A stretch of 64,000 nt of DNA. Origin: Eledone cirrhosa (lineage: Eukaryota). Each line of letters starts with the position of its first letter. Positions within the stretch are counted from its first letter, which is position 1. Shown in pieces: positions 3,331 through 4,152 of the stretch. A program made the position numbers and the translations under genes. The notes under the pieces are model-generated. The model was not told where the DNA came from and did not search any database. It saw only the letters and a program-made list of their open reading frames with translations. The DNA lies in NCBI GenBank assembly GCA_964016885.1, contig OZ024740.1, forward strand, positions 81,840,001 to 81,904,000, read 5' to 3'.

Positions 3331-4152
3331 TAGTTGTAATAAAATGAAAACGAAATTTCATTTCTCACTCTTAGTACGGCACTTACTTAAATGTAAGTAT
3401 GTATGTATACGTACATACATATATGTATACAGTCGTACAGTAGCATGCATATATATATATATATATATATATATATATATATATATATATATATATATAT
3501 ATATATATATATATATATATACATATATATATATTTATATATATATATATATATATATATATATATATATACATACAGGTACACATACATATATGTACGC
3601 ATCAGTTTAGCGGACGCTTATTATAGCGCCCGCTTTGTTCGTTTGCATACATATATGTATGTACGTATACATACATACTTACATTTAAGTAAGTGCCGTA
3701 CTAAGAGTGAGAAATGAAATTTCGTTTTCATTTTATTACAACTAATCGTTTTGGGTGCGCCTGACCGATTTAACTCCCTCGATATGCAAATTAGGCTGCT
3801 CAGCCGTTAATTTTCATAAGGAAAGTATATACTTTCGAACGTTCAACTATCTGGCAGATGGGTATACGGTGCTGATGGTAGCTAACAAGCTTGAAACTAG
3901 TACATCGTTCCTGTGTCAGTGTTGAACAAAAAGGTGACGTGGTTGCCTTAACATCGTGCGGCATAAATTCAGGCTGTTCAGTTTGTTTACAAACGAACAA
4001 AGCGGGCGCTATAATAAGCGTCCGCTAAACTGATGCGTACATATATGTATGTGTACCTGTATGTATATATATGTATATACATATATATATGTGCACGCTA
4101 CTGTACGTCTGTATACATATATGTATGTACGTATACATACATACTTACATTT
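3331..4152 (+). mobile_element. diverged retrozyme-like element: inverted partial copy (3331-3645) plus just over one direct monomer (3646-4152)
   Basis: CATATATGTATGTACGTATACATACATACTTACATTT occurs at 3650 and 4116 (466-bp period). 3331-3645 is the reverse complement of part of the unit. Motif order matches the array monomer, and (TA)n flanks both sides. Confidence 0.8.
3841..3927 (+). ncRNA. type I hammerhead, variant core (probably inactivated copy)
   Basis: ACGGTG-CTGATGG-TAGC-TAACAA-GCTT-GAAA-CTAG-TA-CATCGT, extended by CTGGCA/TGTCAG and GTTCAAC/GTTGAAC. It has A9>G and a U.U pair at 10.1/11.1. Confidence 0.75.

Follow-up and report, generated by a model that had tools for sequence, protein, structure and literature searches.

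The stretch of DNA analysed here, 64,000 nt long and referred to below as the window, is of animal type and rich both in AT and in microsatellites. Its left part holds, in this order, a (TA)n microsatellite, the insertion under study (3331-4153, here called the sister element), a second (TA)n tract, a Penelope-like element (PLE), a third (TA)n tract and a tandem array of a related repeat family. The first microsatellite (3275-3332) abuts the left end of the sister insertion and is its likely target, and the second (4154-4254) separates the sister from the PLE, a 5'-truncated retroelement on the minus strand (4255-6820). The open frame of the PLE (4774-6822) encodes an RT, with a weak match to RVT_1, and a CX4CXXC linker and a GIY-YIG-like end that we read from the translation; its atlas neighbours carry RVT_1, GIY-YIG and HTH_animal at 0.95-0.97. 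Against the third tract (6821-6874) lies an inverted arm that belongs to the array and comprises about 2.2 units on the minus strand (6875-7887), followed by the array itself on the plus strand (7888-40713), with 70.5 units of 464-469 bp, a GC content of 35-37% and a type I hammerhead motif in each unit. The sister, the PLE and the array arm stand in a row (3275-6874), each with its 3' end leftward in (TA)n, and this row is likely the product of serial insertion into one microsatellite. Along the array, recurrent variants and units of 464, 465, 466 and 469 bp return at a semi-regular spacing, which suggests block-wise amplification. Further to the right, the window contains a 140-bp tandem repeat in two copies (56154-56433) and an Rfam tRNA match (60020-60091, plus strand; 36.9 bits, above the gathering score) that is either a tRNA gene or a tRNA-derived SINE head; the Rfam miRNA matches in the window were dismissed as microsatellite noise.

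An earlier note on this DNA had described the sister as an element spanning 3331 to 4152 with a period of 466 bp. The monomer proper occupies 3647-4153 on the plus strand, where an exact 41-mer recurs at an offset of 466 (3647-3687 and 4113-4153), so that the period stands and the monomer amounts to one 466-nt period plus a 41-nt terminal direct repeat. Positions 3331-3646, by contrast, lie outside the monomer and form an inverted part-copy on the minus strand, equivalent to 3990-4153 plus 3688-3744; the insertion thus comprises 1.09 head-to-tail units and this part-copy. Apart from its TA tract, the part-copy differs from the plus copy at two bases plus the junction base, while the tract itself is 94 nt longer than in the plus copy, and unit length therefore varies within the sister family. 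Given this difference and the 38 bases in each unit that have no counterpart in the other, 428 of 466 being aligned, the equal period of sister and array is a coincidence and not a shared property. All frames of at least 100 amino acids that overlap the sister are microsatellite-derived, and the sister is accordingly non-coding.

The two families are homologous over the whole unit. Global alignment of sister and array yielded 299 identities in 504 columns (69.9% identity of aligned bases) and a score of 339.9, compared with 159.8 +/- 11.1 (maximum 193.6) for 200 dinucleotide shuffles. The earlier note had allowed that the likeness might be limited to the hammerhead core; four segments outside the hammerhead each scored above all 300 of their own shuffles, and the similarity is hence not confined to the core. 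Identity of the core would by itself be no proof of kinship, since TAAYAA plus GAAACTAGT recur in unrelated sequence (30 public loci): motif scans of metagenome and viral contigs returned 29 + 1 loci with a hammerhead-like motif, in none of which we found homology beyond the motif (one 16-nt match). As a side observation, loci L001-L029 include an unrelated multi-copy hammerhead-like repeat with an ACTAGT helix III (20 loci from one metagenome assembly, and also L012 and L025), which occurs once as an inverted pair (L017) and, at L025, beside TAACCC telomeric-type repeats.

The central observation of the earlier note, namely that the same helices recur in the same order in both units, was confirmed, with all named motifs in place. 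In the sister these are the arms ACGGTG (3866) with CATCGT (3903) and GTTCAAC (3841) with GTTGAAC (3921), the hairpins AAGGTGAC (3931) with GTTGCCTT (3942) and GAAAGTA (3821) with TACTTTC (3830), and the long-range helix GTGCGGCA (3956) with TGCCGTAC (3694), while the corresponding array arms are located at 8210-8547. The motifs TAACAA, GAAACTAGT, TATGCAAATTAG and TAATTTTCATA are present in both units, and GGTA was read directly in both. With the exception of the hammerhead core, the named helices form in independent circular MFE folds. Along the plus strand of the sister, the predicted order of features is one long-range arm (3694-3701, partner at 3956-3963), hairpin e with a single-stranded linker (3707-3744), helix g (3783-3818, with arms identical in both families and ATGCAAAT at 3784-3791), an extended helix I with the type I hammerhead (3841-3927; the hammerhead itself at 3866-3908, its core at 3872-3878), and a region (3931-4030) that holds hairpin a, the 5' arm of the long-range helix (3956-3963) and hairpins b1 and b2.

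Folded separately as circles, the array unit reached -157.8 kcal/mol (z -9.9) and the sister -155.2 kcal/mol (z -8.4; 60 shuffles each), compared with -125.3 and -116.6 kcal/mol for the respective reverse complements, an advantage of 32-39 kcal/mol for the plus strand. In the independent fold of the sister, 76 of 87 array pairs recurred within two positions, a count that omits the hammerhead and a trivially self-pairing purine-pyrimidine hairpin, whereas 100 neutrally mutated descendants of similar divergence retained 11.6 +/- 9.6% (maximum 43.8%). Likewise, the MFE of the sister was -155 against a mean of -105 in neutral simulations. The predicted architecture common to both units consists of about ten helices.

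The earlier note had further claimed that the differences between the helices are compensatory. That the helices are shared and that 14 of 132 pairs were kept by a double change agrees with this claim, but its significance is only marginal outside the ribozyme. In the column-by-column test of these 132 pairs, 78 were unchanged, 14 were kept by one change and 26 were broken; in a sequence-only alignment, 23 of the 85 array pairs that remained once the ribozyme and the self-pairing purine-pyrimidine hairpin had been set aside were broken in the sister. With the same exclusions, the three observed measures were reached by 36, 21 and 45 of 400 neutral simulations from the array side and by 8, 76 and 5 of 400 from the sister side, and strict pairwise covariation between the two sequences outside the ribozyme appears modest and of marginal significance. 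RNAalifold on the two sequences reported double-sided changes in 21 of 69 pairs, a figure that we do not count as a test since the method selects for covariation and includes doubtful pairs. Covariance models were built, with and without structure, from a 106-nt non-ribozyme segment of the array; the match to its homologue at 3930-4030 ran over the full length but scored 15.5 bits (E 0.069), which is near a background of 12.6 bits in 23 kb, and a non-homologous hairpin scored 17.5. Helix g does not covary, being invariant between the families; this invariance is silent on RNA pairing and may reflect a promoter at the DNA level. Overall, the fold is conserved over the whole unit with unusual clarity, partly through slippage and rebuilding of helices.

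The sister is not a lone element but one copy of a very abundant family that is also present under a second organism label. Part of the sister was found in 20 public runs, of which we examined X1, X4 and X5, together with X21, at 80% likeness, leaving out shares of 0.13-0.22 under other organism labels. Matches to the family comprised 4,765 contigs in X1, 108,432 of 12,467,656 reads in X21 (the species label of X1, from another study) and 46 contigs covering 3688-4039 in X5 (organism B), one of which matches 134 nt across the hammerhead with two differences. The family is clearly abundant and polymorphic, with the read depths giving no copy number, and tandem copies are out of view because the reads are cut at 4037-4153. 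In X21, several apparent ends were rejected as library artefacts at AATT sites, namely read ends at 3718, 3789/3792, 3809 and 3969 and heterogeneous loose ends at 3721-3722 and 3965-3966; many opposite-strand joints in the same run also lie at AATT sites and are reduced-representation artefacts, not element ends.

Array units match Rfam Hammerhead_HH9 at E about 1e-5, below the gathering score, and match the full type I descriptor; the 5' part of the hammerhead is unchanged in 52 of 69 units. Within 3690-4040 of the sister there was no Rfam hammerhead match. The earlier note had overlooked that the core of the sister reads CTGATG-G, with A9>G at 3878, and that U.U stands at the base of helix II. 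By established hammerhead chemistry, a change at core position 9 likely impairs cleavage. The hammerhead of this copy is thus probably dead, with cleavage impaired and the copy inactive. The change is private to the window: each of the four runs shows A at 3878 in 98-100% of its family sequence. The core is thus canonical in the family, and core position 7, a free position, varies as expected; further private positions of the window copy (95% or more) are 3753, 3777, 3954 and 3958. The G10.1-C11.1 pair that closes helix II is present in the array, is replaced by U.U in the sister of the window and, among the 40 of 60 variants listed, appears to be absent from at least two family contigs with only two differences. 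Helix III of the sister is palindromic (ACTAGT), with a predicted cut after 3902. Among the units listed, the motif matched by the type I descriptor lies on a single polarity, unlike a viroid-like symmetric replicon, which has ribozymes in both.

How such units came to lie in (TA)n is suggested by the ends of the insertions. Sister and array each carry a head-to-head inverted arm that ends against (TA)n, and both arms stop within 1-2 nt of one homologous site, just after hairpin e. The 3' ends of the array fall at unit positions 263 and 301, a difference of 38 nt that spans hairpin e; those of the sister differ by 57 nt, not 30-40, and the right end of the array is not at (TA)n. Family sequence from X1 and X4 also has loose ends at 3727, where a short linker gives way to TA (agreement 0.65 in X1). 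The site 3' of hairpin e is therefore a candidate start of reverse transcription. Twin priming of the L1 type is excluded by the geometry, as the internal end and the junction lie 46-163 nt apart. PLEs have been described with inverted 5' copies, 30-40 bp tails and a (TA)n bias, linked to the CX2-5CXXC linker (PMC8557442). Their tail is flanked by two sites within an RNA stem-loop at which the RT starts (PMC11167929), and their dimeric minimal hammerheads have a palindromic helix III (PMC4209133). The insertions seen here, with their inverted arms and with (TA)n as target, fit the Penelope type.

Besides the PLE next to the sister, which has a minimal-hammerhead-like motif at 4500-4473 in its 3' region, a second, broken PLE shows such a motif on the minus strand (42049-42022, with a 7-bp helix II) at its 3' side, together with an inverted repeat (41590-41850) containing further CTGATGA motifs and a decayed frame at about 42200-44360 on the minus strand. 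A third motif of this kind (60561-60533, minus strand, 6-bp helix II) is probably also a PLE terminus. Between the repeat and these three Penelope-type termini of the window we found no common sequence, and the Penelope-like frame consequently exemplifies the kind of helper and is not the helper itself.

Taken together, we consider it likely, with a probability of roughly 0.78, that sister and array are non-autonomous non-LTR retrozymes, which a PLE has likely copied into (TA)n. The array is made of tandem units, the units are non-coding, low in GC and a few hundred bases long, and the repeats co-occur in the window with a PLE frame of the autonomous type. A different origin, as a pLTR that became detached from an autonomous Penelope-like family, with the fold kept for the parent and solo copies as mere by-products, seems unlikely. 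In its favour, a match to known TEs, almost always to PLE termini, exists for 24 of 57 retrozyme families of Xenopus (bioRxiv 10.64898/2026.07.22.740005), and inverted arms and tails are PLE features. Yet the units bear no likeness to the three termini of the window, whose hammerhead is minimal and has a long helix II whereas that of the units is canonical, and the array runs to 70 units with no ORF attached.

The natural variants of the family allowed the constraint on the retrozyme fold to be judged within one family, on the 40 of 60 variants listed in an unphased table. On the unedited MFE structure, 10 of the 40 disrupt a pair, against an expectation of 16.4 (P 0.012). With the core held unpaired and a pair probability above 0.5, the number falls to 6 of 40 (14.5 expected, P 0.001), and outside the ribozyme it is 5 of 32 (11.1 expected, P 0.007), with thresholds of 0.8 and 0.9 in agreement. 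Taken by themselves, double changes outside the ribozyme do not reach significance (P 0.12-0.33). Individual examples include a swap of G.U for U.G at 3869/3905, with the two sides changed at matching frequency, and series from C-G through U.G to U-A at 3959/3698 and 4009/4018, the former being a weaker example because its sites are CpG; variants at 3698/3959, 3958 and 3963 preserve the pairing of the long-range helix. In addition, 3865 T>A produces the state of the array, with a helix I of 7 bp and a UA bulge, and a phased loose end at 3930, read by eye, gives a third version of hairpin a with 6 of 6 pairs, one of them changed on both sides. Separately, we note that variants 3812 and 3814, at an equal frequency of 46%, swap the position of a mismatch in the otherwise invariant helix g.

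The 69 complete array units served as a control; they contain 46 distinct substitutions, some of them possibly assembly errors, of which 16 fall on unpaired positions, 4 keep a pair and 26 break one (26 of 30 at paired sites). Since array units mutate regardless of structure while the spreading variants of the family respect the helices, selection would operate at the RNA and re-insertion stage; it likely acts on the mobilised RNA, not on the genomic copies. This bears on the idea of a structural or regulatory non-coding RNA selected by the host, its fold kept for a cellular function. Conservation of the fold over the whole unit, the invariant block with ATGCAAAT and the abundance of retrozyme circles in mussel tissues (PMC7229834) would suit such an RNA, but the free uptake of pair-breaking changes by array units would not, nor would the loss of a core base from the window copy, and selection on transposition accounts for the pattern with no benefit to the host, all of which makes a host function improbable. 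Least credible is that the hairpins are kept at the DNA level, by template-switching palindrome correction or as part of a MITE- or Helitron-like element with the hammerhead as a passenger. The nearly perfect inverted repeats that make up many hairpins would suit this, as would the invariance of helix g, which may be a protein-binding site in DNA, and deamination could mimic compensation in two variant pairs at CpG sites (3698, 3959). Against it stand the G.U pairs and the strong strand asymmetry, the G.U to U.G exchange, the upkeep of a long-range helix whose arms lie about 260 nt from each other, and a catalytic core that is canonical in nearly all family sequence.

The suggestion of the earlier note that these units represent an old family of structured RNAs of about 466 nt selected for their fold therefore holds in part: whole-unit homology, coinciding folds, the bias to the plus strand and variants that spare the helices speak for it, but the fixed length is not real and the class was already known. 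As for its age, the family may well be old, going by the 30% divergence and its presence under two organism labels, which give no date.

By analogy with the retrozymes of PMC7229834 and of the preprint cited above, mobilisation might proceed as follows. Tandem units would be transcribed as multimers, in which neighbouring hammerheads would pair through the palindromic ACUAGU helix III and cut as dimers, releasing monomers of about 466 nt that would then circularise. A Penelope-like RT/GIY-YIG protein would nick (TA)n and reverse-transcribe the RNA from beside hairpin e, and reverse transcription of this type could leave the head-to-head inverted copies. Only correctly folded RNAs would be re-inserted, which would keep the fold between families, while genomic copies would decay at random. 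With a single hammerhead carrying A9>G, the copy in the window would be unable to release a circle on its own.

A more tentative possibility, which we regard as worth stating while giving it clearly less than even odds, is that the ten-helix body is the cis-acting code of an animal retrozyme, with hairpin e and its linker as the start for a Penelope-like RT and the invariant ATGCAAAT block as an internal promoter element of the snRNA type. We take ATGCAAAT (3784-3791) to be octamer-like, as in snRNA promoters, and regard this as a candidate function; newt satellite 2 is said to contain an octamer. If true, this would provide a structurally defined, testable substrate for the mobilisation of ribozyme circles by PLEs. 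Animal retrozymes have so far been described by their hammerheads. Two diverged families side by side, a large pool of natural variants and the array as a neutral internal control point to the helices and the end site that matter, and the setting makes the proposed dependence on PLEs directly testable.

Our search of the literature on retrozymes, hammerheads, Penelope, and molluscs and cephalopods returned, among the titles listed, none on these families or on whole-unit covariation, although supplements may list such families, and the word 'ribozyme' does not occur in the accessible part of an octopus repeat annotation (PMC13282606). The closest known system are the metazoan non-LTR retrozymes of Cervera & de la Pena 2020 (PMC7229834), with units of 170-400 nt (350-390 bp in mussel), which share with the present families the type I hammerhead, the non-coding, low-GC, highly self-paired tandem units and the coexistence with PLEs. 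The unit here is somewhat longer; expression and circles were demonstrated for those retrozymes and are predicted for ours; and their sequences were called species-specific, with no fold shared between diverged families reported in the portion of that paper at hand. Li, Clavereau & Pollet (bioRxiv 10.64898/2026.07.22.740005), in a vertebrate-centred study, treat non-LTR retrozymes as non-autonomous derivatives of PLEs and found that 8 of 9 predicted Xenopus retrozymes failed to cleave in vitro. Their families resemble ours in occurring as monomer, dimer and multimer copies, in a unit size range (51-972 bp) that includes that found here, in arrays of up to 300 units and in co-occurring with PLEs; unlike ours, which have no local match, many of them match PLE termini by sequence, and the available part of the preprint contains no comparison of structures.

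With PLEs of the Neptune/Nematis type (PMC8557442, PMC11167929, PMC4209133) the repeat has in common the inverted 5' copy, the (TA)n bias and the palindromic helix III, and it may also share the 30-40 bp tail (38 nt in the array, 57 nt in the sister) and the two adjacent RT start sites in an RNA stem-loop, but it encodes no protein and its hammerhead is canonical, not minimal. Newt satellite 2 has an internal promoter of the snRNA type (as cited in PMC2220036), a feature that the present families possibly share. Finally, the pDo500 satellite of Dolichopoda (PMC2837043) is likewise a repeat of about 500 bp with a constrained hammerhead and compensatory changes; there the constraint lies on the hammerhead as against the rest of the unit, whereas here the body also keeps its fold. 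What this stretch adds to the known systems is not a new class but evidence for a constrained non-ribozyme body and a candidate RT start site.
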